Shown here one piece after another: positions 2,804-64,000 of a DNA stretch of 64,000 nucleotides. Source of the stretch: Centroscyllium fabricii (taxonomy: Eukaryota). Each line of letters starts with the position of its first letter. Within the stretch, counting starts at the first letter, position 1. Under the pieces are notes generated by a model. The model was not told where the DNA came from, did not search any database, and worked only from the letters and a program-made list of their open reading frames with translations. The translations under genes were made by a program, and so were the position numbers. The DNA lies in assembly GCA_051313645.2 (NCBI GenBank), contig JBNRSN020000005.1:123008001-123072000 (forward strand), read 5' to 3'.

Positions 2804-2827
2804 TGTAAAAATCTTAGCTAATAAAAT

Positions 2828-3057
2828 TGATGCGCAAATCAATTACGCCAGTCTTTGGTGAAGAGTAATTGATGGCTTTTATTAGCTAAGAACTAGACCT
2901 GGTCCGCGATGAGTCCGCCCGGAATGAGAGTCAGGTGGGCGGAGCATCCTCCTTTATACTCATACCTGGAGGCGGGGTCAGCTGGTCCAGGTCCTTACAG
3001 AAAGGAACAGATTTATTAGCACAAACTATATACAATAATAACACAGTGTGAACCACA
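2828..3057 (-). repeat. 5' LTR of element A
   Basis: Plus strand tgatgcgc...gaaccaca. On the minus strand there is TATAAA near 2958 and AATAAA near 2883. Confidence 0.8.
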
Positions 3058-8274: not shown

Positions 8275-8442
8275 CTGCTTGCCCAACATAATGTTGGAGA
8301 GATTAGACTGCTCTCTCCCTTGTATATATGCTGTCTTCATATTAACTTCTCTTTCACCTGAGGAAGGAGCAGTGCGCCGAAAGCTTGTGATTTCAAATAA
8401 AACTGTTGGACTATAATCTGGTGTTGTGTGACTTCTTGCATT
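8275..8442 (+). mobile_element. Penelope-like element terminal fragment with 12-bp TSD
   Basis: TSD taacaacacaga at 8263-8274 and 8443-8454. Shares sequence with the copies at 13139, 15428 and 55329. Confidence 0.75.
8354..8390 (+). ncRNA. Minimal type I hammerhead ribozyme motif
   Basis: tcac-CTGAGGA-a-ggagca/tgcgcc-GAAA-gctt-gtga: core boxes, stem II and stem I (tcac/gtga). Confidence 0.65.
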
Positions 8443-11224
8443 TAACAACACAGAGACAGTGGAGGGGTCAAGAGGCATAATGGAGAGGTAGAGCTGAGTG
8501 CCATCAGCTGCGTGGAAGCTGACCCTATGTTTGTGGATGAAGTCACCGGGGCAGCATGGGCAGATTCTTGGGGGCATCCTGAAGCAACAGTGTGCCGGTG
8601 GGATTGGTAGAAATGCTTGGATATTGTTTTAAGATTTTTTTAAATATGTTTATATCAAGAAAGGAAATGGAAAATTCAGAGAAATGAGTGTTTGAAATAA
8701 TTGGACAATTAACAGTCCAATTCCTCAGGCCTGCCTTATCTGGTGCGCACATTGATTGTGGTGGTCATTTCACACCCGTAATCGGGTGCTAATGATTTTA
8801 GGCTTGATTAAGATTAAGATCTGAGTCTTGATTGAGATTACAACTGTGTCAGCTGCATAAATCAGGACATGTGTCATCAGTCCAGTGAGTTCAGATGAAA
8901 GCACGGTATTGTTGCAATACTGAAGCATTTTTAAGTAATAAAAAATCTTTAATTTAATTAAACCAAATCATTCAGTTCTGGCATATGGAGGAGAAAATCC
9001 TCACTTCTTGCACCTAACTGGTAACCTTGTAAGATGCATTTGAAAGCTTTGTCCCTTACAACGCCCCCTGGCAATTTTCAGCGCAAGGGGAAACCCAGCA
9101 AAACTGGGTTCCAGTCGATCTTCCAGCCCTTCTGCCACGCTCATGCCAGAATTACAGCGGGTGTATGCTGGGTGGGCTTTGGAATTTCGGCTCCTCGGTG
9201 ACCTCGCACTGACTTTGCATAGTCCAGTGGAGTCAGCAGCATTCATCACTGGCGAGCCCAGTCCGGGAGTCATTGCCAGGATTAAGCTCCTGAGGATTTC
9301 AGGCAAAATGTTTATTATTCCTTTGCATTGGAAATTATCCAATAGAGTGCTGAAAAAAAACAATTCTCTTTGCAATTGAAATTCCACATGGTGGTGCATG
9401 TGCCAACCTTGTTCAAAAACTCAATGGTCTCTTCGTTGCCCAATCAGTTTCTGCTTCTAAGGTTTTAATCCGTATCGAATGCCTTGATTATACAATGTAT
9501 CACGTATCAGATTGGCTCTGAACTCAGTCCCATTCCAACTCCGATTTGTTGTATAATTCTAGTCATGGACCTCAGGTGGTGTGTTTCACAGCAATGTCAG
9601 TTTGAACTCATGCCCATATAGCTTGACAGTAGACTCCATGCCACACTGCCTCATTTCTTATTGCCTAACTTGCCCTGCCAGCGCTATCCCTTTCACCATC
9701 CCTTCGCTGTACGGCACAGCTCAGGTCCTGCTTTATACCTGTTGTGCAGGGTGTTCTTGCTATGTTTTAAACTTTAAAGTATTTGCCAACGTGGGTGTAC
9801 GCTGCCTCTGTGACTGGAAAGAGAAAGACTGATATCGCAACGTGGCACTACCCCTCTGAGGGCATGAATTGGCGCTGGCAGATGCCTTCTAATGATCGTG
9901 GTTTATAACCAGAGCAATGCATTGCCTCAGTGAGCTGGCAATGAAATTAGTTGCACGATCCAAATACTTTTCAAGTTAGAAATGGTTACAAATGAACATT
10001 TTGTCTGATTTGTCTATTGACATGTTTGAGGAATAATAAGAAAGGAATATGACCACCCATCAGGGAGTCGGCAGCAAAAAGGTTAATGCTCACTTTTAAG
10101 TGAATAGGGCTGTTACACGTGCAGAATTTTTTTTCTCCAGTTTCAGACACTGCTTGGTAAACCAACCAAATGAGATAAAGCAGCTTTAATAGTCCATAAA
10201 ATTGCAATCACTTCATCTTGTGACCCACAAACAGTCAAAATCATCATTTAAAGTGCTGATTAATGAACAACATACTTAAATCATACTTAAAAGCAGGACA
10301 GCGCCACTCCTTTCTAATTGCAAGGCTGAATTAAAAAGTCACAAGTTAAAAACTGCGCAAAGTGGATGTTATCTTTAGAAGGTGTCACTGCATAAATGGT
10401 CTAAAGGAATGACAGTTTCTGTACTTCAGCTGCCAATTCATTGAGGTCAAGTGAGTCCTGTATTATATTTTATTAAAATAACATATACCACCTACGGAAT
10501 CTCCTGGAGACTACTGTAAATTGTTTTCTGGTAAATCTGCTCTAATGATGGAGAGTAACACTGTCTGTGAACATCTTCTGACACTGCAGCAAGACTGGAA
10601 CACTCTAGAAAAGAGGAAACAACCCTGGCACTGTAACACAAATGACAACATTCTTTAACTTAAGGTTCCCTACCGAGTTGCTATTAGTTAAAATAACTGT
10701 TCAAAGGTTAGTATCAATCAGAATTAGAGCTTCTCTCTTCTTTACGATACAGTTTGCACTCTAAATAAGGCTACAGGCAGAACAAAGCTGGCTGCCTCTC
10801 TGAGGAGCTGAGCCAAGCCAGTGTGCTCGATGGAAGGGAGAAGGGGCATTCGCAGATTAGCTTCATTCAGATGAATCTAAATTTGGAGTTTGGGTTAATT
10901 GAGATTTCAGATTCATCTTCTAATACCGAGGAATTGATATTTGGATCCTCTGAATACAAACTCAAATCTAAATGTCAAAAAAGTATGTAAATCAAAATGG
11001 TCCTAAATTGAAATAAAACTGCTATACTAAAGATCATGGCTAGTAAACACCATAATTTTGAGTCGTATACTGTGGATTGGGTAGGAGCATAACCACAAGG
11101 CTATTTCTCTCTACCCATGAGACTATGGGGGTTTCCAATGAACATATCACAATTAAAAGGTAAGTGGTCACATATAAGAACAAAAAGAATTGCCTTTATA
11201 AAGCTGTAATTTTTTTATTTTGTA

Positions 11225-13138: not shown

Positions 13139-13355
13139 AATGTGGAGGTGCCGGTGTTGGACTGGGGTGGACAATTGCAAGAAGTCACACAACACCAGAT
13201 TATAGTCCAACAGTTTTATTTTAAATCACAAGCTTTCGGAGCGTTCGCCCCTTCGTCAGGTCTCTTTCCACCTGACGAAGGGGCGAACGCTCCGAAAGCT
13301 TGTGATTTAAAATAAAACTGTTGGACTATAATCTGGTGTTGTGTGACTTCTTGCA
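13139..13355. mobile_element. Penelope-like mini-insertion: two inverted hammerhead-containing terminal repeats, 13-bp TSD
   Basis: About 88-bp inverted arms at 13174-13261 and 13270-13357. TSD atataaaatttat at 13126-13138 and 13356-13368. Confidence 0.85.
13267..13305 (+). ncRNA. Minimal hammerhead ribozyme motif (mirror copy on - strand at about 13226-13261)
   Basis: cac-CTGACGA-a-ggggcg-aa-cgctcc-GAAA-gctt-gtg. Confidence 0.7.
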
Positions 13356-13597
13356 ATATAAAATTTATGTCGTGTCTCCTCCTCACTCACTCCCACACAG
13401 GTATAAACACAAGCATAGAAAAGGAATACAGAACCAATGCCGTGCAATGTGACCTCCTTTGGAAGATGCCTTTTAGAGACAACACTTGGCAGCACACTGT
13501 GCTACTCACACCAAGCTTTCCAAGCCCAGTACAACAACACATATTCTGGAGGATGCTGTTAGTGACATTGACAGGGTCGCACTGGATGAGTCGCTGC

Positions 13598-15427: not shown

Positions 15428-15525
15428 CTGCAAGAAGTCACACAACACCAGATTATAGTCCAACAGTTTTATTTTAAATCACAAGCTTTCGGAGCTTCTG
15501 CCCCTTCGTCAGGTGAAAGAGAGAC
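15428..15525 (-). mobile_element. Penelope-like end with hammerhead motif (15479-15516)
   Basis: Minus strand reads tcac-CTGACGA-a-ggggc-agaa-gctcc-GAAA-gctt-gtga. Confidence 0.7.
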
Positions 15526-15735
15526 CCTAACACTAAGGGTCAATTTATCCTGGCCAATCAACCTAACCCGCATATCTTTGGACTGTGGGAGCAAACCAGA
15601 GCACCCGGCGGAAACCCACGCAGACACGGGGAGAATGTGCAAACTCCACACAGATAGTCACCCGAGGCCGGATTTGAATCCGGGTCTCTAGCGCTGTGAG
15701 GCTACAGTGCTAACCACTATGCCACCGTGCCACCC
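15526..15735 (-). mobile_element. HE1/V-SINE, 5' part
   Basis: Reverse complement of the tRNA-like head and V-domain (gtgtggagtttgcacattctcccc). Confidence 0.85.
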
Positions 15736-20928: not shown

Positions 20929-23900
20929 CAGGTAGATACAGTGGGACAAGAGGTAACTAAATACAGCACAGTATAACAGTGGGGGTAAACAGTATTACAG
21001 GTTTACCACATTCACCCCTTGTTTTAAAATTGAGTCCAGCGGGGTGAAGTGGTTTTTGAAACATAGAAGATAGGAGCAGGAGTAGGCCATTCGGCCCTTC
21101 GCGCCTGCTCCGCCATTTTTTTGATGAGATCCTGGCTGATCATCTAAACCAAGCACCCTGTCCCTGCCTTGTCCCCATATCCCTCAATCCCTATCGAGCC
21201 TGCACCGACACATATCCCACCCTATCCCCGTAACCCCACATATTCAATCCCCCTAACACTAAGGGTGAATTTATCCTGGCCAATCAACCTAACCCGCACA
21301 TCTTTGGACTGTGAGAGGAAACCGGAGCACCCGGAGGAAACCCACGCAGACACAGGGAGAATGTGCAAACTCCACACAGTTAGTCACCCGAGGCTGGATT
21401 TGAACTCGGGTCTCCAGTGCTGTGAGGCAACAGTGCTAACCACTATGCCACTCTGCCGGGAGTAGCATAAGAAAGTCTATTGGGCGGTCTGGTCTCCCTC
21501 CGCGACCGGCTGTTGTGCGGGATACTCAGGCAAGATGGTCTTCATCATCGGTGGCATGACAACAGTCTCCTGGTGGTCATGCATCGAAGGATCCCGGGAC
21601 GCCGGCATACCATCTACAGGGGCTAGAGAAAGGGAGGGTAACACAGGTGCATCGAGAGTAACGGTGGGGGGGAGGTGGGATAGGTGGTGGGAAATGGTGG
21701 TCTCAGGGGCACCTGAGGGTGCAAAGTCTCGAATGGAGACCGTGTCCTCCCGCCTGTCGGGGAATGCCATGTAGGCGTGGAGGAGCAGTACCCTGTCGAC
21801 CAGGGGGTCCGGCTTATGGCTCCTCACGTGCCTCCGAAGTAGGATGGCCCCTGGTGACATCAGCCATGGTGGTAGCGAGGTCCCCAAGGTGGACTTCCTA
21901 GGGAAGGCAAACATCTTCTTGTGAAGAGTAGCGTTAGTTGCAGTACAAAGCAGCGACCTAATGGAATGGAGTGCATCAGGGAGGACCTCCTGCCAGCGGG
22001 AGATTGGGAGGCCCCTAGACCTCAGGGCCAGTAGAACGGCCTTCCAGACTGTCCCGTTCTCCCTCTCAACCTGCCCATTCCCCCGGGCGTTGTAGGTGGT
22101 GGTCCTGCTCATTGCAACTCCTTTCGCAAGCAGGTACTGGCGCAGCTCATCACTCATGAACGAGGAGCCCCGATCACTATGTATGTAGTTGGGGAAGCCG
22201 AACATGGTGAAGATGCTGTGCAGGCACTTGATGACCGTGGCCGAGGTCATGTCTGGGCAAGGGATGGCAAAGGGGAAACGTGAGTACTCACCAATGATGG
22301 TGAAAAAGTACACGTTGCGGTCGGTGGAGGGGAGGGGCCCTTTGAAGTCGACACTCAGGCGCTCAAAGGGGCGGGCGGCCTTTATCAGGTTAGCTTTGTC
22401 TGGCCTGTAGAAGTGCGGTTTGCACTCGGCGCAGACTTGGCAGTTCCTGGTAACGGTCCGGACATCCCCAACGGAGTAAGGCAGGTGGCGGGACTTGACA
22501 AAGTGGAACAACCTGGTGACTCCTGGGTGACAGAGGTCATTGTGGAGAGATTGTAGTCTATCCACTTGTGCGTTGGCACAGGTTCCACGGGATAGAGCAT
22601 CCGGAGGCTCATTGAGTTTACCGGGCCGGTACAAGATGTCGTAATTGTAGGTGGACAGTTCGATCCTCCACCTCAGGATCTTGTCATTTTTAATCTTGCC
22701 CCGCTGTTTATTATTAAACATAAAAGCCACTGAACACTGGTCAGTGAGCAGAGTGAATCTTCTACCAGCCAGGTAATGCCTCCAGTGCTGCATCGCTTCC
22801 ACGAAGGCCTGGGCTTCTTTTTCCACAGAGGAATATCTGATTTCAGGGCCTTGAAGGGTACAGGAATAGAAGGCCACCGGTCTCCCCGCCTGATTAAGGG
22901 TAGCAGCCAGAGCGAAGTCAGAGGCATCGCTTTCCACCTGGAACGGGGTGGATTCATCCACGGGCTTGCATGGTTGCCTTCGCAATGTCTGACATAATTC
23001 GATCGAAGGCTACGCGAGCCTCATCCGCCAGGGGGAAAGAGGTACTTTTGATGAGGGGGCGAGCTTTGTCTGCATAATTAGGGACCCACTGGGCGTAATA
23101 CGAGAAAAAGCCCAGGCATCTTTTCAGGGCCTTGAGACTGTGGGGGAGGGGAAGTTCACTGAGGGGGCGCATGCGTTCAGGGTCTGGACCGATGACCCCA
23201 TTTTCCATGACACATCCCAGGTTAGCGAGGCGGGTTGTGCGGAAAACGCATTTCTCCTTGTTGTATGTGAGGTTAAGGAGCTGGGCTGTTTGGAGAAATT
23301 TAGCCAAATTGGCATCATGGTCCTGCAGGCCATGGCTGCAGATAGTGACATTGTCTAAGTAGGGAAAAGTAGCCAGCAGCTCATTTTGATCCACCATTCG
23401 GTCCATCTCCCGCTGGAAGACTGATACCCCATTGGTGACGCCGAAGGGGACCCTGAGGAAATGGTAAAGACGGCCGTTTGCTTCAACGGCAGTGTACTGG
23501 CGGTCTTCGGGGTGAATGGGGAGCTGGTGATACAGAGACTTTAAGTCGATCATGGAGAATACCCGGTACTACGCAATCTAGTTGACCATGTCAGATATGC
23601 AAGGAAGTGGGTATGCGTCCAGCTGCATATACCGGTTTATGGTTTGGCTGTAGTCAATGACCAGGTGGTGTTTCTCACCAGTCTTAATGACTACAACTTG
23701 GGCTCTCCAGGGGCTGTTATTAGCCTCAATGATCCCCTCCCTCAGGAGCCGCTGAACCTCAGATTTAATGAAAAATCTATCCCCCGCACTGTAGCGCCTG
23801 CTTTTAATAGCTATGGGCTTGCAGTCCAGGGTGAGATTAGCGAACAGCGGGGGAGGGGCGACCTTAAGAATCGAGAGGCTGCAAACGGTGCGTGGCGGGT

Positions 23901-25509
23901 GGCTTAAAACTGCTGGCTGCAAACAATGAGGGGGGGAGGGCTAGCCCGAGCAGAACGGCAGCGCAGAGGTTGTGGAAGGACAAAGAGTTTAAAATTACTA
24001 TAAACCGTGCCCCGCACTAACAATGTAACGATGCAGTAGCCACCGACATCCACTGTTTGAGACTTAGAGTCCAGGGAGATCCGCTGGCGTGCCGGAAGGA
24101 ACGAGGGTGAAAGCCTCCATACATGTGTCGGGGTGAATAAAGCTTTCAGTGCTCCCTGAGTCAAAAAGGCAGTTTGTGTTGTGTCCGTTTACCTGGATGT
24201 CCATCGTGGACCTGGCGAGCTGGTGAGGCCTGGACTGATCCAGGGTAATGGAGGCCAGTTGAGGCAGTAAAAAATCGGGGTCCTCAGGTGTGGAAGCGGG
24301 GGAAGCGGGCGCGGACGCGGACGCGGTCGGCGAATTCCATGAATCACACGCGTCTGGGGGAGATCCAATATGGCCGCCCCCTAGATCCCCATGCAGCCGT
24401 CCAAGATGGCCGCTCGACCGGACCACATGCGGCGTTGCTGGGGCTAGGGGAGGGTTCTGCATTGCAAACACTGGCATAGTGCCCCTTCTTTTTGCAGCTA
24501 GAGCACGTTGCATCTTTCGCCGGGCAGCACTGCATGGGGTGCTTAGGTTGGCCACAGAAATAGCACTTCTGCGCATGGGACACCGCTGCAGACGTTAGCG
24601 GGGGCAGCGCGCCGCTGGGGGGCGATCCTACCATTCAAGATGACTGCGCCCGCGCCATCCATGAGGTGGCCGCCTGGTCCGATGAGTAGGACTCCATATT
24701 CCTGTGCGCCACGTCCAGCGAGAGCGCGAGGGCTGAGGCTTTTTTTTAAATCGAGGTCACTCTGCTCGAGCAGCCTCTGACGGGTGTTGCTCGATTTGAT
24801 ACCCACAATGAAGGCATCGCGTATCAGGTCCTCCACGCACTCCTGGGCTGTTACCGGCATGCCGCTGCAGGCTCGTCCGAGTATTCGCAACGCCTGAAGG
24901 TAGTCCGCTGTAGATTTACCGGTCTGTTGTCTGCGGCATAGCAGGAGGTGTCTAGTGTAGACCTCGTTAACCGGGGTAGCGAACTGATCTTTAAGGAGTC
25001 TAAGGGCGTCCTCGTAAGAGGTCTTGTCTTCGATCAGCGTGTAGATATGATGGCTTACCCGGGATTGCAGGACCGTCAGCTTCTGTTCATCCGAGGCAAC
25101 GGTGGCACTGGAGGCTGCTAAAAAGAGTTCAAAGCACTTCAGCCAGTGCGCAAACCTTCGCGGTGCATCCACCGCCTGCGGGTCTAACTCCAGGCGATCG
25201 GGTCTTAATATTTTATCCATCGCTAAAACAATTTTTGTTAATAAAATTGATGCACAATCAATTACAGCTAATCGACAGAATTAGGTAATCAAGGCTTTTA
25301 TTAACAAAAGAACTGAAGTACAGGTCTCAACACTATCTGGTCCTGGAATGTCAAGGGTCAGCAGGGCTGCCACCTTTATACCACAGCCTGTGGGTGGAGC
25401 CTGGGGGTGGAGCCGCCAGAGACATCCCAGGTAGATACAGTGGGACAAGAGGTAACTATATACAGCACAGTATAACAGTGGTGGTAAACAGTATTACTGG
25501 TTTACCACA
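20929..25509 (-). mobile_element. Gypsy element B: degenerate gag-pol with 5' LTR 25248-25509 and truncated 3' LTR 20929-21010
   Basis: Gag starts at 25220. Protease LFDSGS, RT FPYLDNV, RNase H ESDASD, and integrase HNDLCH..CQVC / VDFKG / HSDRG / QVERE. PPT aaggggtgaa at 21011-21020. Multiple frameshifts. Confidence 0.95.
21060..21460 (-). mobile_element. Full-length HE1/V-SINE inserted in the 3' region of element B
   Basis: tRNA head, V-domain and CR1-type tail in reverse orientation. Confidence 0.85.
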
Positions 25510-25609: not shown

Positions 25610-28005
25610 GAACATAGGAACATAAGAAATAGGAACAGGAGTAGGCCACTTGGCCCCTCGAGCCTGCTGCGCCATTCAATAGGATTATGGCCGATCATCA
25701 ACCTCAACTCCACTTTCCTGCCTGATCTCCATATCCCTTGATTCCACTAGAGTCCAAAAATCTATCTATCTCAGCCTTGAATATACTCAAAGGCCCAGCA
25801 TTCACAGCCCTCTGGAGCAGAGAATTCCAAAGATTCACAGCCCTCTTAGTGAAGAAATTCCTCCTCATCTCGGTCTTAAATGGCCTACCCCTTATCCTGA
25901 GACTATGCCCCCTAGTTCTAGACACTCCAGCCAGGGGAAACAACCTCTCGGCATCTACCCTGTCAATCCCCTTCAGAATCGTGTATGTTTCAATGAGATC
26001 ACCTCTCATTCTTCTAAACTCCAGAGAGTATAGGCCCATTCTACACAATCTCTCATCATAGGACAGCCCTCTCATCCCAGGAATCAATCCAGTGAACCTT
26101 TGTTGCACCGCCTCCAAGGCAGGTACAGGTTGAGCACCAAAAATCCGTGACCCGAAACGCCGGCAGCTTCAGTCTGCCGGAACAAATTGCCCCGACTGCA
26201 CTGCGCATGCGCAAAATGTCAGCCGCGATCGCGGCTTCGGCGAATGATCTGCGCATGCGCCGCCGAACGGCGAGCGCATGCGCAGATCATTTAAAATGGC
26301 AGCCGGGTGTTTTGAATGATCTGCGCATGCGTCGCCGGACGGCTAGCGCATGCGCAGATCATTCAAAACGGCCACCGGACGAGCCGGGCCTTCCGTGGCG
26401 TCAGGGCGCGGCAGCTCGCGCCGCGTTTTGAATGTATGAGTCCCGAGCGCCCGCCAAGGTGAAGCGCGCGGTTTCCCGGAGCAGCCTGCAGGCCGTCATC
26501 AGGAGGCAGCTGAGACTCCACGAAGACGTTCGGCGGCCATTTTCAAGGTTGTGCGCATGCGCGCGGCCATTTTGCATGGTGCGCGCATGCGCACTGACCA
26601 ACTTCATTCTGCCGGTTTTTTCACTTTCCCGGCACGGGCCTGGTCCTGCCCATGCCGGATTTCCAGGGCTCAACCTGTATATCCTTTGGAGACCAAAACT
26701 GTGCACAGTACTCCAGGTGTGGTCTCACCAAGGCCCTGTACAATTGTAGCAAGACTTCCTTACTCTTATATTCCAATCCCTTTGCAATAAAGGCCATCAT
26801 GCCATTTGCCTTCCTTATTGCTCGCTGTACCTGCATGCTAGCTTTCTGTGTATCTTGCACAAGGACACCAACATTTCTCTGAACACCAACATTTGAAAGT
26901 TTCTCACCATTTATAAAATATTCTGTTTTTCTATTCTTCCTAACAAGGTGAATAACCTCACATTCCCCTACATTATACTCCATCTGCCACCTTACTGCCC
27001 ACTCTCTTAGTCTATCTATATCCCTTTGTAGACTCGAGGGGCACTGATCCTTGCGGCACCCCAGCAGTTACAGCCTGCCAAACTGAAAAAAACCTGTTTA
27101 TCCCTACTCTCTGTTTTCTGTCCATGAACCAATTCTCTATCCATGCTATTATATTACCCCCAACCCCATGAGCCCTAATCTTGTGCAATAACCTTTTATG
27201 TGGCACCTTGTCGAATGCCTTTTGGAAATCCAACTGGTTCCCCTTTATCTACAATTCTAGTTACATCCTCAAAGAACTCTAATAAATTTGTCAAACATGA
27301 TTCCCCTTTCATAACACCATGTTGTCTCTGCCTAACCATGTTATGATTTTCTAAGTGCACTGATAGCCACTTCTTTAACAATGGATTCTAGCATTTTCCT
27401 AATGACAGATGTCAGCCTAACTGGCCTGTAGTTCCCTGTTTTCTCTCTCCCTCCTTTTTCAATAGCAGGGTTACATTTGCGACTTTCCAATCTGCTGGGA
27501 CCATTCTGGAATCTAGGACATTTTGGAAGATCAAAACCAATGCATCCACTATCACTTCAGCCACCTCTTTTAGAATCTTAGCATGTAGACTGTCAGATCC
27601 AGGGGAATTGTTGGCTTTTAGTCCCATTAGTTTCACTAGTTCTTTTTCTCCAATTATATTAATTACATTAAGTTCCTCACCCTCATTAGACCCTTGGTTC
27701 CCCACCATTTTTGATATGCTTTTTGTGTCTTCTTCAAAATATTTGCTTAGCGTTTCTGCCATTTCCTTATTCCCCATAATCATTTCTCCTGTCTCACTCT
27801 CTAAGGGACTAACGTTTACTTTTGCTACTCTTCTACATACTTGTAGAAACTCTTACAATCTGCATTTATATTTCTTGCTAGATTTTTCTCATATTCTATT
27901 TTTCCCCTTTTTATCAATTTTTAGTCAACCTTTGCTGGTTTGTGAAACTCTCCCAATCCTCGGGCTTACTATTATTCTTCAGAACATTATAAGCTTCTTC
28001 TTTTA
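25610..28005 (-). mobile_element. 5'-truncated CR1 LINE
   Basis: DFQKAFDKVPH, GVPQGSV, LYRALVRPHLEYC and RRMRGDLIETY, with a 3' tail near 25610. Confidence 0.9.
26126..26677. mobile_element. pogo/Tigger-like MITE with TA TSD
   Basis: TA-caggttgagc ... gctcaacctg-TA. It interrupts a CR1. Confidence 0.85.
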
Positions 28006-34158: not shown

Positions 34159-37100
34159 TGTAACCGTCAATAACGTCTTCGGAGTCGAATAGTAGGTTAT
34201 AATAATCAGGCTTTTATTAACTTCGTTGGAGATACACAACCGAGCTGACTGTCCCCAGAATGGCGCGGGGGATGGGGACAGTCCTTTATGTACCTCCTCC
34301 GGCGGGGGAGGAGTCATGGGCGGTGCCAGGTATCATACAGGTGTTACATGGTATTACAGTGCTATACAGGTGTTACATGGTATTACAGTGATATACAGTT
34401 TATCACATTCACCCCTTCTTTAAAAACTAAAGTACGGTGGGGTGAACAACTCGCGGGGGGGTACAAAAAGGGAAAAGAAAAACAACTAATTACACTGTGC
34501 TAAATAACGAAATATATACAATTAACGTTCTTTTGACTATATGTTCAGTCTTTCAGGCGGTTTCGTCGTCCGCGCTGATCTTCGTAGCGCTGGTGGTGCC
34601 TGTGGTGTTCGTTGTCGTTGAGTGGCTCGCCGTGCTGGCAGTGCCTGTGGTGTTCGTTGTCGTGGGGTGGCTGGTTGCGTCGTTTGTTCCTTTTCTGCTG
34701 GTTGGCCGGTGGTGGTTATGTCACTTCCGGGTGGCGGTGATGCCCTTATTTCGACAGCAGGGGGCGCGCTCTCTCTTTCGTCCTCTGGCTCTGGGGGGAG
34801 CGCATTGTGGATCCAGGCTTGGGGCTGGGTCGTGCTGCGCGCAGGTGCCTTGTGGACATACTGGGGTACTGGGCCCACGTGGCGGAGCTCGTACTTCGGC
34901 TTCGGTGGCTCGGGGGGGGTCACTGGGGTTTTTGGGAGCTCGGGCTGCCTGGCTGGGCTGGTTTTGGGGATCCCTGCTGGGGCTAGGTCCTTTATGGACA
35001 CGGTGTCCTCCCTCCCGTTGGGGTACGCTATGTACGCGTACTGGGGATTGGCGTGCAGGAGGTGGACCCGTTCGACTAGGGGGTCTGCTTTGTGTCCCCT
35101 CACATGCTTCCGCAGCAGAACCGGTCCCGGAGATAGCAGCCACGATGGTAGCGAGGTCCCGGAAGCTGACTTCCTGGGGAAGGCAAAAAGTCTTTCGTGA
35201 GGGGTGGTGTTAGTGGCAGTACACAATAGGGACCGGATAGAGTGGAGTGCTTCAGGGAGAACGTCCTGCCATCGGGTGACTGGGAGGTCTTTTGACTTTA
35301 GGGCTAACTGGATGGCCTTCCAAACCGTGGCGTTCTCTCTCTCTACCTGCCCGTTCCCCCGGGGGTTGTAGCTGGTGGTCCTGCTGGTTGCAATACCTTT
35401 CGCCAGCAGGTACTGACGCAGCTCGTCGCTCATAAAAGAGGCCCCCCGGTCACTGTGGATATAGTTCGGGTACCCGAACAGGGAGAAGATGCTACCGAGG
35501 GCTTTGATAACAGTGGCGGAGGTCATGTCCTGGCAGGGGATGGCGAAAGGGAAACGGGAGTACTCATCTATAACGTTGAGGAAATAGACGTTCCTGTTGG
35601 CTGAGGGAAGGGGCCCTTTAAAATCGACACTGAGTCGTTCAAAGGGGCGAGTGGCCTTGATTAGGTGCGCCCGGTCTGGCCGGTAGAAGTGCGGCTTGCA
35701 CTCCGCGCAGACCTGGCAGTTGCTAGTCATGGTCTTGACTTCTTCGATGGAGTAGGGGAGGTTGCGGGACTTCACGAAGTGAACCAACCTAGTGACCCCC
35801 GGGTGGCAGAGGTCGTTGTGAAGGGTTTGGAGACGGTCAGCCTGTGCGCTGGCACAGGTACCGCGGGATAGGGCATCTGGGGGTTCGTTAAATTTCCCGG
35901 GCCGATACAAAATATCATAATTGAACGCTGATAGTTCAATTCTCCACCTTAATATTTTGTCGTTCTTAATCTTACCCCGCTCTTTGTTGTTGAACATAAA
36001 AGCGACTGAGCGTTGGTCAGTCAACAGGGTAAAACGCTTTCCGGCCAGGTAGTGCTTCCAGTGCCGCACTGCTTCAACAATTGCTTGGGCCTCCTTTTCG
36101 ATTGAGGAATGGCGGGTTTCTGGGCCTTGGAGGGTACGTGAAAAGAAGGCCACGGGTCTGCCCGCCTGGTTAAGGGTGGCGGCCAGTGCAAAGTCAGATG
36201 CATCACTTTCCACTTGGAATGGGACGGACTCATCCACAGCGTGCATCGTGGCTTTGGCTATGTCCTTTTTTATTCCGCAGAATGCCGAGTTGGCTTCTGC
36301 AGAAAGTGGGAAAGAGGTTGATTTTAATAGTGGGCGAGCTTTGTCCGCATAATTGGGGACCCACTGGGCATAATAAGCAAAAAATCCCAAAATCCGTTTA
36401 AGAGATTTGGGGGAGTGGGGGAGGGGAAGCTCCATGAGGGGGCGCATGCGGTCCGGGTCTGGACCGATGACTCCATTTTCCACCACGTTGCCGAGGATGG
36501 CGAGGCGACCGGTGTTAAACACACATTTCTCCTTATTATACGTGAGGTTCAGGGTTTTGGCGGTGTGGAGAAATTTTTGGAGATTGGCGTCATGGTCCTG
36601 CTGGTCATGGCCGCAGATGGTCACATTATCGAGGTACGGGAAGGTCGCTCGCAGCCTGTACCGATCGACCATTCGGTCCATCTCCCTTTGGAAGACCGAG
36701 ACCCCGTTCGTGACTCCGAACGGCACCCTAAGGAAGTGGTAGAGGCGGCCGTCAGCCTCGAAAGCAGTATAGAGACGGTCCTGTGAGCGGATGGGGAGCT
36801 GGTGATAAGCAGATTTTAAATCGATGGTTGAGAACACTTTAAATTGGGCGATTTGGTTTACCATGTCCGCTATCCGGGGGAGGGGGTAGGCATCTAGTTG
36901 GGTGAACCGGTTTATGGTCTGGCTGTAATCCACTACCATCCTATTCTTTTCCCCGGTTTTCACCACGACTACCTGTGCTCTCCAGGGGCTGTTGCTAGCC
37001 TCTATGACCCCTTCTTTTAGGAGGCGCTGCACCTCAGATTTTATAAATGCCCTGTCCCCAGCACTGTAGCGCCTACTCTTGGTGGCGACGGGCTTACAGT

Positions 37101-38839
37101 CTGGGGTGAGGTTAGCAAAAAGGGATGGAGGGGTAACCTTAAGGGTTGAGAGACCGCAGGTAGTATACTGGGGGTTCCGCTTTGAGTCGCGGTTTGTGAC
37201 CGTGAGGGGAGGGAGGGGTCCACCGAAAGCCATCGTAACGCTCTGAAGGTGGCACTGGAAATCCAGTCCCAGGAGTAGGGGGGCGCAGAGCTGCGGCAGC
37301 ACGTAAAAACTAAACTTGTTAAAGATAGCCCCCTTTACGTTTAGCGTTACACTACAGCGCCCGGTGACATCAGCGGATTCCGATTTTGACGCCATAGATA
37401 TTCTCTGGCGCGCAGGGATTACTTTAAGGGAGAGGCGCTTAACAGTATTCTGATGTACAAAACTTACTGTGCTCCCGCTGTCGAACAGGCACACCACCTC
37501 TTCACCGTTAACTTCCACCGGCATCATTGATCTCCCCAGTGGCTGGATTGTCTTCTGATCTAGGCTCATAGATGCTAGTACTGGGTCCTCCCCAAAATCT
37601 TGATCCGGAGAGTAGTTATCTCGGTCTGGATAGTAGTGATTTTGATCCGGGGAGTAGTCCTCCAGGTCAGTTTCCTGGGATGGCTGCCTCCATGTGCTCT
37701 GCTGTTGGGTGGGGGATGGGTGCTGCTGCAGCCTTGAGCTTGAGTGCTGCTGGTTGGGGGATGGGCGAGGCCGATTTTGCAGCTCCCTTGTTCCACAGGC
37801 AGCACTGTCCAGTCTTGGTTTAACATATGGGCCTTTGCAGACCTTTGCATAGTGCCCCTTTTTGTCGCACTTGGAGCAGATTGCTTCTCTGGCGGGGCAG
37901 CTACGTCTTTGATGCTGTGGTTGTCCACAGAAGTAACATTTCGCTTTAGCGTGGGCCGCTGTGAGAAGTTCCTCTGACGGTCTCTGCCCCCGCACTGTCC
38001 AAGATTGCGGGGCTGGGCCCGTATAGTTAGTAGAATACGATGATAAATCTGTAGAGGCGCTGTCTAGCGCGTGTCCCAAATCGACAGTGGCCTGTAAGTC
38101 CTGGCCATTTTGTTCTAATAGTCTTTGCCTAGCATAGTCCGATTTTAGGCCTGTTACATAGGCATCCCTGATGAGACTCTCCATATGTACTAGGGCCGTT
38201 TGTGCTCTGCAGTCACAGTCCCGTGCCAGGGTTCTGAGGGCTCTTAGGAACTGCACACTTGATTCGTTGTCCTGCTGTTTTCGGGTGGCCAGTATGTGTC
38301 TCGCGTGGACTCTGTTTGGCGCCCGATTGTATTCCCCGTCGAGGGTCCTGAGGGCTTCGTTAAATGATGAGGCGTCCACGATCATCGAGTATACTTGCGG
38401 GCCCACCCGGGCGTGGAGGAGCCGTCGTTTTTGCTCCTCGGTCATTATGTCCGTTGCGTTGGCTCTAATGTATCCTTCCAATACATTTCGCCAGTGTGAG
38501 AAGGCATTGGATGCTCCAGGAGATCGGGGGTCAACCTCGAACACTGATGGTTTCAACATTGCAGTATCCATTTCAAGAAGTTAATAAAATTGTAACCGTC
38601 AATAACGTCTTCGGAGTCGAATAGTAGGTTATAATAATCAGGCTTTTATTAACTTCGTTGGAGATACACAACCGAGCTGACTGTCCCCAGAATGGCGCGG
38701 GGGATGGGGACAGTCCTTTATGTACCTCCTCCGGCGGGGGAGGAGTCATGGGCGGTGCCAGGTATCATACAGGTGTTACATGGTATTACAGTGCTATACA
38801 GGTGTTACATGGTATTACAGTGATATACAGTTTATCACA
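34159..38839 (-). mobile_element. Intact Gypsy LTR retrotransposon C
   Basis: 249-bp LTRs (34159-34407 and 38591-38839) are identical by eye, with TG..CA ends and a TCCTC TSD (34154-34158, 38840-38844). PPT gaaggggtgaa and a single ORF. Confidence 0.97.
34537..38571 (-). CDS. gag-pol: Gag-Pol polyprotein, 1344 aa (Gag with two CCHC knuckles, PR, RT, RNase H, IN)
   Basis: CYFCGQPQHQRRSC/CSKCDKKGHYAKVC, LFDSGS, FPYLDNV, ESDASD, HNDLCH..CQVC, VDFKG, HSDRG and QVERE. No stops. Confidence 0.97.
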   Translation of the reverse strand: MDTAMLKPSVFEVDPRSPGASNAFSHWRNVLEGYIRANATDIMTEEQKRRLLHARVGPQVYSMIVDASSFNEALRTLDGEYNRAPNRVHARHILATRKQQDNESSVQFLRALRTLARDCDCRAQTALVHMESLIRDAYVTGLKSDYARQRLLEQNGQDLQATVDLGHALDSASTDLSSYSTNYTGPAPQSWTVRGQRPSEELLTAAHAKAKCYFCGQPQHQRRSCPAREAICSKCDKKGHYAKVCKGPYVKPRLDSAACGTRELQNRPRPSPNQQHSSSRLQQHPSPTQQQSTWRQPSQETDLEDYSPDQNHYYPDRDNYSPDQDFGEDPVLASMSLDQKTIQPLGRSMMPVEVNGEEVVCLFDSGSTVSFVHQNTVKRLSLKVIPARQRISMASKSESADVTGRCSVTLNVKGAIFNKFSFYVLPQLCAPLLLGLDFQCHLQSVTMAFGGPLPPLTVTNRDSKRNPQYTTCGLSTLKVTPPSLFANLTPDCKPVATKSRRYSAGDRAFIKSEVQRLLKEGVIEASNSPWRAQVVVVKTGEKNRMVVDYSQTINRFTQLDAYPLPRIADMVNQIAQFKVFSTIDLKSAYHQLPIRSQDRLYTAFEADGRLYHFLRVPFGVTNGVSVFQREMDRMVDRYRLRATFPYLDNVTICGHDQQDHDANLQKFLHTAKTLNLTYNKEKCVFNTGRLAILGNVVENGVIGPDPDRMRPLMELPLPHSPKSLKRILGFFAYYAQWVPNYADKARPLLKSTSFPLSAEANSAFCGIKKDIAKATMHAVDESVPFQVESDASDFALAATLNQAGRPVAFFSRTLQGPETRHSSIEKEAQAIVEAVRHWKHYLAGKRFTLLTDQRSVAFMFNNKERGKIKNDKILRWRIELSAFNYDILYRPGKFNEPPDALSRGTCASAQADRLQTLHNDLCHPGVTRLVHFVKSRNLPYSIEEVKTMTSNCQVCAECKPHFYRPDRAHLIKATRPFERLSVDFKGPLPSANRNVYFLNVIDEYSRFPFAIPCQDMTSATVIKALGSIFSLFGYPNYIHSDRGASFMSDELRQYLLAKGIATSRTTSYNPRGNGQVERENATVWKAIQLALKSKDLPVTRWQDVLPEALHSIRSLLCTATNTTPHERLFAFPRKSASGTSLPSWLLSPGPVLLRKHVRGHKADPLVERVHLLHANPQYAYIAYPNGREDTVSIKDLAPAGIPKTSPARQPELPKTPVTPPEPPKPKYELRHVGPVPQYVHKAPARSTTQPQAWIHNALPPEPEDERESAPPAVEIRASPPPGSDITTTGQPAEKEQTTQPATPRQRTPQALPARRATQRQRTPQAPPALRRSARTTKPPERLNI

Positions 38840-39610
38840 TCCTCTCTCCACTGTCGCTGCTTTAATTCAAGTCCGCTCTCGGGCCGCTCTTTATCCTCTC
38901 GCCGCTGCCGCTGCTTTAATTCAGGTCCACTCTTGGGCCGCTCTTTATCCTCTTGCCGCTGCCGCTGCTTTAATTCAGGTCCGCTCTAGGACCGCTCTTT
39001 ATCGTCTCTCTGCTGTCACTGCTTTAATTCAGGTCCGCTCTCAGGCTACTCTTTATCCTCTCGCCGCTGCCGCTGCTTTAATTCAAGTCCACTCTCGGGC
39101 CGTTCTTTATCCTCTTGCCACTGCCGCTGCTTTAATTCAGGTCCGCTCTCGGGCCGCTCTTTATCCACTCTCCGCTGCCGCTGCTTTAATTCAAGTCCAC
39201 TTTCGGACCGCTCTTTATCGACTCTCCGCTGCCGCTGCTTTAATTCAGGTCCACTCTCGGGCCGCTCTTTATCCACTCTCCGCTGCCGCTGCCGCTGCTT
39301 TAATTCAGGTCCGCTCTCGGGCCGCTCTTTATCCTCTCGCCACTGCCGCTGCTTTAATTCAGGTCCGTTCTCGGGCCACTCTTTATCCTCTCGCCGCTGC
39401 TTTAATTCAGGTCCGCTCTTGGGCCGCTCTTTATCCTCTCGCCGCTGCTTTAATTCAGGTCCACTCTCGGGCCGCTCTTTATCCTCTCGCCACTGCCGCT
39501 GCTTTAATTCAGGTCCACTCTCTGGCCGCTCTTTATCCTCTCTCCACTGCCACTGCTTTAATTCAGGTCCGCTCTCGGGCCGCTCTTTATCCTCTCGCCG
39601 CTGCCGCTTC
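38840..39610. repeat. Satellite array, right part (same 54-bp unit)
   Basis: The array resumes in register after the TSD. Confidence 0.95.
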
Positions 39611-54673: not shown

Positions 54674-56553
54674 TGCCCTAGTTTCACTGGAGGCTACGAA
54701 TTGCCGAATCGTGCCGATTGTGAAATTTGCCCGATTCGTGGGTCATTCTTGCAATTCGTAGTGGATTCGTAGTGGATTCGTAGTGGATTCGTAGTGGATT
54801 CGTAGCGGATTCGTAGAGTTCGCGGTAGTTCGCGGGAGTTCTTTGAGTTTTCAAGAAAGTTTTTGTTTGTCAAAAAATTTCGTGGGAGGGTTCACGAATG
54901 TCCAATTCGTGATAGATTCGTAAACAATTCGTGACCCATTCTTACCGTTCGTGACCCTTTCTTACCATTCGTAACTGATTCGTAGTGGATTCGTAGTGCA
55001 TTCTTGGCTATTCTTGGGCATTCTTGATTTTTTCAAAATTATTTCCAAAAAGTTGTGTTTATAAAAATAGTTGTAAAAATGAGTGGTTAAATGTTTTAGT
55101 TATAAAAGTTTTTGTATATAATATTAGTTATAAAAAGTTATGGTTATGTTATAAAATTTTGTGGTTATAGTAATAGTTTTAACAAAATTGTGGTTATATG
55201 TTATTTATTATAAAAATTACCATTATACCTTGCTTGCTGTTTAAATCCTGGTTTTCTTTTGTTGCATAACACTTTATTTTTTTCCCACAATAAAAATAAC
55301 TTTCAGATAAAATTTGTCTCAATTTATCCAAGAAGTCACACAACACCAGTTTCTTAGTCCAACGGTTTTATTTAAAATCACAAGCTTTCGGAGCTTCTGC
55401 CCCTTCGTCAGGTAACACAGACAGACTGAAGTCAAACATCACACATGGGGGAGGGGAGAAATCTGAACTTATACATAGGCAAATTAGCATAGTTTAACAC
55501 CTCAGTATATTAACCATTTTTATCCATTTATCATCAAATTAAACAACATCACTGGTAATGTCAAATCACTGAAATTCACACACGCTTGCTCAGTCCTGCC
55601 ATTCTGTCCTGCCACGGAACAGATCCAGCAGCACTGTTGAAGTATGCTGTGAGGTAGTCCCTCTGGATCTTGCCCATCTGGTGGTCTATGTTACGTGCAG
55701 AGGGGTGTGTAACCGCGTGCATCTGCATGCCGTCCCTCCAGGCTCCAGGGATGATGCTGTGGTTGTCATCCTCGTGGTCCACCTCTGTGTTTCCAATTGC
55801 GGGGAACCTGATCCTCATGAGGTTGTGAAGCAGGACAGCTGTTTCCACCATGGTGCACACCATTTCTGGATGTTGTTCCAGGGTTCCAAGGAAGCATCTC
55901 CATCTGTTGGCCATTATTCCAAAGGCATTCTCCACCACGCGTCTGCCCCTTGAGATTCGGTAGTTGGCCACCATCATCTCATCACTGAGACCCCTCCTGG
56001 AGTAGGGTTTGCAGCAGTCTGTGGTAGTGCCCAAACTCTAGCCTTCTAGCCGGTGTCATCCATGGTCGAACCCACCAGCGCTTGCGTCTTCTCTGTCTTC
56101 TTGGGGGTTCCAAGAACAGCAGGTCGTGATAGTGCTCCAACTCCGCAGCCAGAGCCACACATGCTTTCCATCGAACACCCATTGTACAAATGACAGGTTC
56201 AGCAGGGGTTCAGGGTTTTTTTATATGCTGGAATATGCCGGAATATCAACAGAAATGCCAACTATCAAAATCAATTCTTAGATGATTCTTAGAATTCGTA
56301 ACTAATTCGTGGAGTTCGTAGTGGATTCTTAATTAATTCTTGCAATTCGTGGTGGATTCGTGAGTGATTCGTACCTCATTCGTAAAATAATTCGTGATAG
56401 ATTCGTAACCTTGTCCAGAATCGCCAAGAATTCACCAAGAATCGCCAAGAATCAACCAAGAATTTTAGCATTTCTTGAAGAATCGCCAAGAATTTCGATT
56501 CTTGACGATTCTTGGGATTCTTGGCATTCTTAGCCTCCAGTGAAACTAGGGCA
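54674..56553 (-). mobile_element. Internally deleted Harbinger transposon
   Basis: About 23-bp TIR tgccctagtttcactggaggcta, subterminal (gtagtggattc)n repeats, and a transposase C-terminus NYRISRGRRVVENAFGIMANRWR..LLHNLMR at 55576-56034. Confidence 0.85.
55329..55413 (-). mobile_element. Penelope-like end with hammerhead core
   Basis: Near-identical to 15432-15514. Confidence 0.7.
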
Positions 56554-58982: not shown

Positions 58983-59260
58983 TGCGGTAAACCACTCTTT
59001 TGTACATATATATATATTGTTGTAATCGTACTTTCACTATGTTGTATTATAGTTCTCTGTATGCGATTACCTGGACATGCCCATGCTGGCCCCGCCTGCG
59101 ACTCCTCCCTTCCGGGACCAGGTATATGAGCGGCCGTCTCCCTTCCCCCAGCCATTCCTGGGGACGGTCGACTAGCTGGTGCATGTCCACCTTTAATAAA
59201 TAAAAGCCTATAGTTTTCTCCTCTTAACTACTCGTCTCCGAGGTCGTTAATTCGGTAACA
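58983..59260 (+). mobile_element. Solo LTR of the A/B/C Gypsy group
   Basis: tgcggtaaaccac...ggtaaca with a GTCAG TSD and the aataaaagcc motif. Confidence 0.9.
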
Positions 59261-59499
59261 GTCAGCAAAGAGCAGGTATGTTAATATGGCGGGGGTCGAG
59301 TAAAGCAATGCTGGCAAACCATTAATGCTGCAACCAGCCATGAAAATGTTTTAAATTTCCCTTAATGCTGTTGAGATTTTGACTGGGATCCAGGCCTGGA
59401 AAGAGACCTTTTACGGTGGTATTGGGTGGACCATGCATGGTCCCGTAAAGAGGAGCCGACAGGTAATCTTCCGTTTATCTTTGTGGGGCCGGAAAGAGC

Positions 59500-61249: not shown

Positions 61250-61486
61250 TGTGGCGGCACACCAGACTAACGAATCCACCTCGGGAGTGCTGCGGGGCAT
61301 AGCCCCGCCCACCGGGTGACGCGATGACGTCACCACGTCTCTCGGCTTGATGAGGTCACTAAGTGGGCAGTTTAAATAAGCCTGCTCCTCGTGGTTCAGT
61401 CTCTTTCTTGCTAAGTAATGTAATTAAACAAGTGTTATCTGTCTCTCCGGCTCCTGTGTGGTTCTTGGGTCCTGCAAGCGCTACAG

Positions 61487-61499
61487 TGGTGACCCCGAC
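61487..61499 (+). promoter_or_regulatory. Primer-binding site complementary to the tRNA-Trp 3' end
   Basis: TGGTGACCCCGAC immediately after the LTR. Confidence 0.9.
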
Positions 61500-61576
61500 T
61501 TGGAACGTCTTCCAAGGAGAAAACAGCAGCTACAGGACTAAAAACCAAGCAGCCTCAGAACACTTTAAAAAGCAAC

Positions 61577-64000
61577 ATGTCTTCAAGAAACCAAGCTTCT
61601 CGATCACAAGGACTTGGCCAGAACTGCAGGCACAGACTAACTCTACCGGAGTTCTGGGAGCAACGCCCGGCAGCGTGGTTCATGTGTATAGAGACCAGCT
61701 GCCGCACACATGGCATCCAGGGGGATGACTGCTACGACCTGGTCTTCTCAGCTCTACCGCAATCTACGATAGATCGGATGTGGTCGAAGCTTCAGCGCGT
61801 GCCCGCGGCAGGCAGGTATGAGTTCCTCAAGGCCGCGCTACTTAAAAAATTTACCCCCTCCCAATTCGAGCGCGACTGCCAGCTCCTTAACCTCCCCGAA
61901 CTCGGGGACGCAGACCCATCGGAACTTTGGGACCAAATGCAAGCGCTCACCACCGATCCCGCCTCCCTGTTCCGCACCATATTCCTCCTTAAACTACCCC
62001 GCTCCATCAGACCGGCCCTGGCGGCCCTCTGCCACCGGAGCGGGGACGAGCTAGCCGAGGAAGCCGACAGGCTCATGGCGGCCGAGCGCACCTGCTCCAC
62101 CACGTGCGACCTCACTGCCGCAGCAATCGAGCACAACCACTCGCCCCCCAGGTCCAACCCAACGCCTGAACCCAGGCCCCCGCGCCCTCCCAGGCTACCG
62201 CGTCCACCAAGCACCGGCTGGTGCTACTACCACACGCGGTTCGACACTAAAGCGCACCGCTGCGTACAGCCACGGGCCGGCTCAGCCCCCACTATGTCTG
62301 TAGGACACACCGGAGCACTGCTCTACGTCACAGACAGCGGCACAGGCCTCCGGTTCCTCTGCGACACAGGCGCACAGCACAGCATCGTGCCGGCCTCCCC
62401 AGCAGAAGCCAAAAAAGGCACCCGGGGCCCGCCACTCGCAGCGGCCAACGGCTCAGATATTAAAACGTATGGCACCCGCAAGCTCACAATCGAGCTTGCC
62501 GGCCACACGTACCACTGGGAGTTTGTCACGGCCCAGGTCACTTCACCCCTCCTCGGGGCAGATTTCCTCTGCGCCCACGGCCTCCTGGTCGACATGACCC
62601 GGCGCCGCCTGGTCGACATTCACAACATGTCGACCATCCCATGCTCCACAGGGCCCGCACTCCTGGCCCACGCGGCGGCACAATGCCGCGCCCAGAACTC
62701 TGACGCATACGGCACGCTCCTCGCTGAGTTCCCAACCCTTACCAATACCACCTTCACCGCCCGCACGGCCAAACACGGGGTGGAACACTTTATCACCACC
62801 TCCGGCCCTCCCATGCATGCCCACGGCCGCAGACTGGACCCGGCCAAGCTGGAGATTGCGCGCACTGAGTTCCGCACCATGGAACAACTCGGCATAATCC
62901 GCCGCTCCAACAGGCCCTGGGCCTCTCCCCTCCACATCGCTCCCAAGCCGGGCGGAGGCTGGCGCCCCTGCGGCGACTACCGCCACCTCAACAACGCCAC
63001 TACCCCGGATAGGTACCCCGTACCCCACATCCAGGATTTCTCCGCCAGGCTAGCGGGCTGCACGATCTTCTCCAAGATCGACCTGGTGCGTGGCTACCAC
63101 CAGGTCCCGGTGCACCCGGCGGATGTCCCCAAGACAGCCGTAATTACCCCCTTCGGCCTCTTCGAGTTCCTCAGGATGCCCTTTGGACTCAAAAACGCGG
63201 CCCAGGCCTTTCAGCGCCTAATGGACTCGGTCCTACGGGACTTGCAGTTCATTTTTGTCTACTTAGACGACATCCTCGTGGCCAGCGCCTCACCCCAGGA
63301 GCACCTCCTGCACCTCAGGACCCTGTTCCAGCGCCTCACCGAACACGGCCTCATATTAAGCCCCTCCAAATGCAAATTCGGCCTCGAGACCATAGACTTC
63401 CTCGGGCACCGCATTTCCAAAACCGGGGCCATACCCCTGCCCTCCAAGGTGCAGGCAGTTCAGGAATTCCCCCGCCCGCACTCCATTAAGGGCCTGCAGG
63501 AATTCCTCGGGATGGTTAATTTCTATAACCGCTTCATCCCAGGTGCAGCCGCTCTCATGGCTCCCCTATACCAGGCCACACGCGGGCAGTCTGGCAAAAC
63601 TGCGGTCGAGTGGACAGCCGACGCCGCCACCACCTTTACTGCAACCAAAACCGCCCTGGCCAACGCCACCCTCCTAGCCCACCCCAGGCCCAACGCCAGA
63701 GTGGCCCTCACCACTGACGCCTCCGACCACGCTGTCAGGGCCGTTTTCGAACAGTGGACCGGCAACTCTTTGCAGCCCCTAGCCTTTTTCAGCCGGCAAC
63801 TTCGGCCCCCGGAGGTTAAGTACAGCGCCTTCGACAGGGAGCTCCTCGCTCTCTACCTCGCAGTGTGCCATTTTCGCTTCCTCCTGGAGGGCCGTCCCTT
63901 CACAGCTTTCGTCGATCATAAGCCGCTCATTTTTGCAATGGCTAAGATCGCCGAACCCTGGTCGGCCAGGCAGCAGCGCCAACTCGCAGCCGTGTCGGAG
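61577..64000 (+). CDS. gag-pol: Gag-Pol, 3'-incomplete (Gag, PR, RT, RNase H)
   Basis: My translation from ATG 61577 gives [56 protein letters not shown] and [10 protein letters not shown]. It is absent from the ORF track, presumably because there is no stop in the window. Confidence 0.85.

Follow-up and report, generated by a model that had tools for sequence, protein, structure and literature searches.

Putative self-priming by a capped 5′ RNA segment in an abundant non-chromoviral Gypsy lineage of Centroscyllium fabricii

How reverse transcription was primed in a decayed Ty3/Gypsy LTR retrotransposon, which we term element B, is the question raised by a 64-kb stretch of DNA from Centroscyllium fabricii (hereinafter the window, meaning the whole stretch analysed). 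The PBS of this element lacks the TGG start expected of a tRNA-primed Gypsy PBS, as do those of two related elements in the window, A and C, and is instead complementary to a segment of its own 5′ LTR (hereinafter the arm; Table 1); an ARAGORN search of the 64 kb recovered no tRNA gene. The sequence-only reading of this locus was made on the plus strand, but it is the minus strand that carries element B and gives its RNA. The assignment to Ty3/Gypsy is based on TG...CA LTRs, a polypurine tract and the domain order PR-RT-RH-IN, of which the LTRs and the tract were seen in B, and the domain order was obtained by Pfam analysis of C. Element C is intact and has an intact ORF, whose polyprotein recovered Ty3 Gag-Pol as the best PDB match (E 4e-59); two knuckle-like Cys/His arrays are present in its Gag, and a chromodomain is absent from the 7 Pfam families detected on the ORF. 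The RT motif of C reads YLDN.

Table 1. Positions of the retroelement features within the window
Feature	Position	Strand	Remarks
5′ LTR of element B, TG...CA, 262 bp	25248..25509	-	terminus CATCA; flanks of 30 family loci diverge at 25509/25510
Predicted TATA box, element B	25375..25380	-	TATA-to-initiator spacing 31 nt in B
Initiator, element B	25345..25350	-	predicted first RNA nucleotide 25349; CATTC conserved in A, B and C
Putative capped self-primer, 54 nt in B	25296..25349	-	49-56 nt in relatives
LTR arm of element B, 14 nt	25296..25309	-	includes poly(A) hexamer 25302-25297; 3′ end would be the priming end
Inner stem-loop inside the 49-nt loop	25258..25292	-	8-bp outer stem with two G·U pairs, including the 5-bp stem of the sequence-only reading; weak by energy
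PBS of element B, 14 nt	25233..25246	-	1 nt past LTR end (CA); no TGG; exact complement of arm
gag start (ATG 25221) to premature stop, element B	24543..25221	-	33% identity to C, residues 1-236
pol remnant PR-RT-RH-IN, element B	21477..24264	-	several frames, with frameshifts and stops; 63-76% identity to C
Polypurine tract, element B	21011..21029	-	SINE-like insertions (about 21050-21460) between tract and pol
Truncated 3′ LTR of element B, 82 bp	20929..21010	-	96% identity to 5′ LTR
Arm/PBS unit of element A, 15 bp, loop 50	2812..2891	-	
Arm/PBS unit of element C, 13 bp, loop 54	38577..38656	-	
Element C	34159..38840	-	identical 250-bp LTRs; 5-bp target duplication; inside 54-bp tandem array
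Different Gypsy element	61250..64000	+	TGG-type PBS ~61488-61500; about 30% identity to C in pol
Solo-LTR-like copy	~59000..59262	+	about 70% identity to C's LTR

The different Gypsy element at the end of the window has no LTR/PBS inverted repeat, and its PBS resembles the tRNA-Trp site of CsRn1 elements. Elsewhere in the window we observed a perfect 88-bp inverted repeat with an 8-nt spacer (13174-13357), built of a dispersed repeat that also occurs at 8348-8443, 15429-15526 and 55326-55421, and a GC-rich insert with several short palindromes (26100-26660) within a CR1-like repeat.

The LTR/PBS pairing of element B

The arm and the PBS form a perfect 14-bp complement across a 49-nt loop, exactly where the sequence-only reading had placed them. 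When the 118-nt stretch was subjected to 20,000 dinucleotide shuffles, a perfect inverted repeat of 13 bp arose once and one of 14 bp never, while block-shuffled windows yielded 0.03 repeats of at least 14 bp per 64 kb. The arm of B had also been said to differ from those of A and C and still to pair fully, which we confirmed: the three arms have an invariant 8-nt core in common, and three paired outer positions in B differ from each of the other two elements. Absence of the pairing from the family of B, which that reading named as the refuting case, was not what we found. Scoring copy by copy, in place of a family consensus, we observed all 14 pairs in 21 of 30 family loci (including the window copy), 13 pairs in seven, 12 in one and 11 in one.

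An inner hairpin had likewise been proposed within the loop. It is present as one of several possible folds in B. Read on the sense strand, its 5-bp stem becomes an 8-bp stem that includes G·U pairs. Across 14 related families, 65 of the 84 cells in six of its columns are paired, 14 of them as G·U, vs 54 of 84 for a reading of the opposite strand and 18-40 when slid. Folding energy by itself, however, does not single it out. The whole-stretch folding z-score is -1.63 on the plus strand and -1.15 on the sense strand, the minimum-energy fold on the sense strand uses other pairs, and the loop alone averages -1.36 (sense) and -0.86 (antisense) over 19 clusters; RNAalifold recovered only the outer helix and not the inner stem.

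Co-variation of arm and PBS across families

A genome-wide search with a pattern for the LTR/PBS core, which fixes only the 8-bp core and leaves pairs 9-13 unconstrained, retrieved 80,895 matches in the 7.2-Gb genome, as against none for the reversed control. From these we assembled 53 unique loci, comprising the first 30 matches, 20 with differing loops and elements A, B and C (two duplicates were dropped from 55 rows, where L047 and L048 overlap). Pairs 9 to 13 are Watson-Crick in 52, 51, 52, 50 and 47 of the 53 loci, respectively, and the pairing fades at positions 14-15. With one representative taken from each of 19 clusters, 87 of the 95 outer pairs are Watson-Crick, a count reached in 0 of 100,000 permutations (mean 57.6, maximum 74). 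On a tree built from the part of the LTR that precedes the arm (51 loci, omitting L056 and L074, in which the upstream LTR has been replaced), pair 9 changes seven times, at least six of these changes being forced by well-supported branches; hence, there are at least six to seven independent double switches at this pair.

The pairing also extends to loci retrieved by other means. Among 30 loci picked by an aphid gag query alone, which have a different core, 22 pair at 12-13 of 13 positions, with the best register searched, and they include a hexamer variant that is matched on both the arm and the PBS. Of 8 distant loci from genome contigs, 4 were usable (L215, L217 and L218 have no gag start and L220 spans only 270 bp), and all four of these distant relatives, which retain DNA upstream, show pairing of 13-17 bp in the register seen here, 1 nt past the LTR. 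Every family that we examined in this genome has an arm terminating in AATAAA or ATTAAA, as do three of the four distant relatives; one relative, L216, has a 17-bp pairing with a non-canonical hexamer. TTTT opens the PBS of B and of all pattern-selected loci, TTTA that of the gag-picked family. The related LTRs have conserved TATA and initiator motifs, spaced by 29 nt in 61 of 65; the distance from the initiator down to the arm end is 51-53 nt in 67 of 72 LTRs (54 nt in B). As the PBS co-varies with each family's own LTR, a single host RNA is unlikely to have served as primer, judging from sequence. The closest named proteins are from sharks and rays, and relatives were recovered from cartilaginous fishes, an aphid, nematodes, a damselfly and a sea anemone. 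A metagenome scan with the C gag returned four loci, matched in mid-protein only and with no LTR/PBS unit, and the viral contigs searched contained no relative. Complete or partial elements also occur in contigs filed as bacterial MAGs (L213, L214, L216, L219), which are probably animal-host DNA.

The sequence-only reading interpreted the differences between arms as compensatory change. The co-variation is real and far wider than A, B and C, but the changes in the PBS look templated, that is, copied from the arm, rather than classically compensatory, and G·U intermediates are not favoured. Genome-wide, at the one pair position covered by this test (pair 9), 99.2% of 70,422 copies are Watson-Crick, and U·G (267 copies) is no commoner than C·A (280; p=0.61); the 0.78% of odd copies would be about what decay after insertion is expected to leave. 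G·U pairs, which the inner stem does contain, should be acceptable in a helix maintained purely as a structure, but would not have to be in a PBS rewritten from the primer in plus-strand synthesis; the pair-9 data thus fit a templated PBS. Not all retrotransposons inherit their PBS from the primer, as Ty1 illustrates.

Over-long PBS copies in relatives

A small fraction of junctions preserves a PBS that runs on beyond its usual length. In L071, it is prolonged into a 54-nt stretch complementary to the LTR with one mismatch, which halts at the initiator and there joins gag. We collected such over-long copies in two sets. In the dominant family group (set 1), the pattern gave 343 matches (about 0.5% of junctions), of which 98 were examined from the first 100 after dropping two tandem duplicates; L221 represents the same place as L071, and L126 and L151 the same junction as L121. 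For the A/B-like families (set 2), 30 of 181 matches were examined, 28 of them distinct (L226 and L227 are in tandem with L225). In set 1, the complement reaches the LTR start in 49 of 98 copies; in the other 49, it ends short of the initiator in 18, within 0-2 nt of it in 13 and beyond it in 18. Eleven of the 13 copies in the initiator peak are independent (p about 6e-6 vs the density just short of the initiator). In set 2, seven ends lie at most 3 nt from the initiator, eight fall short of it and seven are at the LTR start, with three beyond the LTR, two in U3 and one continuing after a deletion. Of 77 ends that fail to reach the LTR start, about 20 are in U3 beyond the initiator.

An untemplated C comes directly after 14 of 21 near-initiator ends, compared with 5 of the 37 other ends (Fisher p=6e-5; for 14 of 21 against an expectation of 1/3, p=0.002), where the template predicts G or A, not C. 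The control set omits ends at or near the LTR start, five loci of unsure alignment (L148, L159, L193, L211, L212), and L224 and L246. Reverse transcriptase is known to copy a cap as C. The C that follows initiator-proximal ends therefore points to a capped RNA starting at the initiator as the template. We predicted the start base of B (25349) from the conserved CATTC and from the over-long copies of related families that end at the equivalent base. In the family of B itself, the over-long pattern had no match among 136 exact junctions, where fewer than one was expected; the primer evidence for B is thus borrowed from its relatives.

We considered and rejected the notion that all over-long copies are primer copies: in half of them the complement traverses U3 and reaches the LTR start, for which DNA snap-back is the better account. 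Two U3 ends are seen in eleven of the set-1 loci that reach the LTR start, with exact 5-bp target duplications in six of ten distinct ones. These six are palindromic inserts of 435-545 bp with U3 at both sides (L122, L130, L141, L196, L199/L200, L208); in L164, the target duplication has one mismatch. Such palindromic two-U3 inserts are likely snap-back cDNA inserted by integrase. In 7 of 98 copies of set 1 (L115, L136, L143, L144, L148, L187, L195) and 3 of 28 of set 2 (L235, L243, L245), the complement extends past the LTR and covers the polypurine tract and internal DNA as well; the seven cases from set 1 have similar internal 3′ sequence. Separately, L121, L126 and L151 have one common junction, at which a 52-nt primer copy is joined to gag ~185 nt past the PBS, and which reflects either one deletion lineage that was amplified or an event that recurred. 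Truncated sense-side ends cluster near the arm end in 17 of 51 cases; we set this cluster aside as proof of an RNA cut, given that opening of a DNA hairpin yields the same pattern.

A self-priming model, its rivals and known systems

Taken with the fixed register, the Watson-Crick co-variation and the PBS run-on that halts at the initiator, which support self-priming, we consider it probable that element B primed reverse transcription with its own capped 5′ segment of ~52-54 nt, folded back and cut after the hexamer. Transcription would start at the initiator about 30 nt past the TATA box, placing the arm 40 nt inside R, and the arm would base-pair with the PBS across the ~50-nt structured loop. 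A 3′-OH would then be generated by nuclease cleavage 3′ of the arm, with the RNase H of RT as the candidate enzyme if Tf1 is a guide. RT would extend it through U5 and the last part of R, and the short segment separating the hexamer from the poly(A) site would serve for the jump to the 3′ LTR. Plus-strand synthesis would copy the primer back into the PBS, which would then track mutations of the arm. In about 0.5% of copies, copying of the primer would overshoot as far as the cap, or the plus strand would snap back on its own arm and copy U3.

The ends in U3 beyond the initiator (about 20 of 77) weigh against this model, and two observations are left unexplained by it: the run-ons into the polypurine tract and internal DNA are not accounted for by a 5′ primer alone, nor does a 52-nt primer explain why the normal PBS is limited to 13-15 nt. 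Both would follow from priming by the 3′ end, wherein the arm of the 3′ LTR pairs with the PBS (in a circular genome or with a dimer partner) and the whole RNA, its poly(A) tail cut off after the hexamer, is the primer. The run-ons (7/98 and 3/28) fit it, the PBS would be short as the rest of the primer is hybridised to cDNA and degraded, and the same co-variation is predicted. We nevertheless regard priming by the 3′ end as unlikely. It predicts minus-strand copies reaching the cap, but none of the 51 sense-side ends is at the initiator (the nearest are at -7 and +30), and it does not predict an initiator peak with an extra C on the primer side. Moreover, the arm in the 5′ LTR is only ~50 nt from the PBS, and internal run-ons could also come from plus-strand DNA annealed to a second packaged RNA. 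A second RNA bears on the 5′ primer too: the initiator ends map the cap without proving the cut, and they could stem from an uncut second RNA annealed to plus-strand DNA.

Alternatively, the pairing might serve only to hide the poly(A) signal of the 5′ LTR, with something else as the primer. A hairpin that hides this signal is known from HIV-1; here, the arm ends in the hexamer in all families of this genome and in three of four distant relatives, and the helix can form in the 5′ LTR only, where alone the PBS arm is found. Against this, a structural helix should accept G·U, but wobble is no commoner than mismatch in the outer helix and the inner stem does use it; hiding a signal needs no fixed register 1 nt after the LTR end; L216 keeps 17 bp with a non-canonical hexamer; there is no TGG or other primer site; and the over-long PBS copies require a plus strand ending in the complement of the arm. 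Hiding of the signal as the sole function is hence quite improbable, although under self-priming it would be a by-product of the helix and may serve as a second function. The arms are very AT-rich, their folding z-scores are weak and DNA snap-back does occur in the group (49/98 over-long copies), any of which might suggest a chance inverted repeat or a DNA-level inversion or fold-back artefact. The shuffles (0/20,000), the 80,895 matches vs none for the reversed control, the co-variation and the identical register in distant relatives are at odds with such an origin, which we count as refuted.

The best-studied comparison for self-priming by the 5′ segment is Tf1 of Schizosaccharomyces pombe, which self-primes after an RNase H cut (PMC7175516, PMC4600332), made between bases 11 and 12 (PMC7175516). 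Like Tf1/Tf2 and Tj1 of S. japonicus as presented there, the elements reported here have no tRNA PBS and a PBS that complements their own 5′ RNA, and their primer would be released by cleavage 3′ of the paired segment. Whereas the Tf1 primer is the first 11 bases, here a segment of 13-15 nt is paired, located ~40 nt into R and terminating in the poly(A) signal; the predicted primer would be ~52 nt long and capped, and the R overlap for strand transfer short. The group also stands apart from Tf1/sushi in that its primer would not be the first ~11 nt counted from the predicted start and in that C has no chromodomain. By the sequence criterion of PMC6317226 (at least 10 bp of 5′ LTR/PBS complementarity, with the PBS 0-5 bp after the LTR), element B, with 14 bp at 1 nt after the LTR, falls among self-primers. 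That paper predicts self-priming, from the same kind of PBS complementarity to the 5′ LTR, in the vertebrate Tf1/sushi chromoviruses, the moss Tcn1 clade and the plant TAR/Houba/Osr-1 copia elements; these are different lineages, and the portions consulted derive no primer length or cap trace from genomic copies (PMC6317226). The double Cys/His knuckle in the Gag of element C is a feature that PMC2577118 links to Mag and Micropia/Mdg3 and not to chromoviruses. Mag A/B/C and Cigr-1 are also similar in having a single gag-pol ORF of 1,200-1,350 aa and short LTRs, and the available sections of their descriptions are silent on priming (PMC6238403, PMC3601003). The Mag clade is a lead for placing these elements. 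Our literature search, with Repbase Reports outside its scope, found no account of self-priming in such a non-chromoviral animal lineage. Repbase entries reportedly mention self-primed Gypsy families in invertebrates, and this group may be noted there.

More broadly, a very abundant, animal-wide, non-chromoviral Gypsy lineage may have acquired self-priming independently of Tf1/sushi, with a capped primer of ~52 nt ending in the poly(A) signal, a PBS continually rewritten from that primer and mis-copied insertions as its fossil record; we see the case for this wider reading as evenly balanced. If it is true, one helix would both prime and silence 5′ polyadenylation, and hundreds of mis-copied insertions, among them cap-marked primer copies and palindromic two-U3 mini-elements with target duplications, would record replication intermediates. 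Since the PBS complements the element's own LTR and not a tRNA, tRNA-based PBS finders miss the group. The reading yields exact predictions of start base, cut site and primer length, and over-long PBS copies as a readout of primer length, start site and cap could be used in any genome rich in such elements. Element B itself is a dead copy; its value is in the family-wide evidence for a long capped self-primer. Self-priming has so far been worked out mainly in fission-yeast Tf1 with its 11-nt primer, to which a capped long primer coupled to the poly(A) signal would add a second design, in a lineage with about 81,000 LTR/PBS junctions in a single vertebrate genome.
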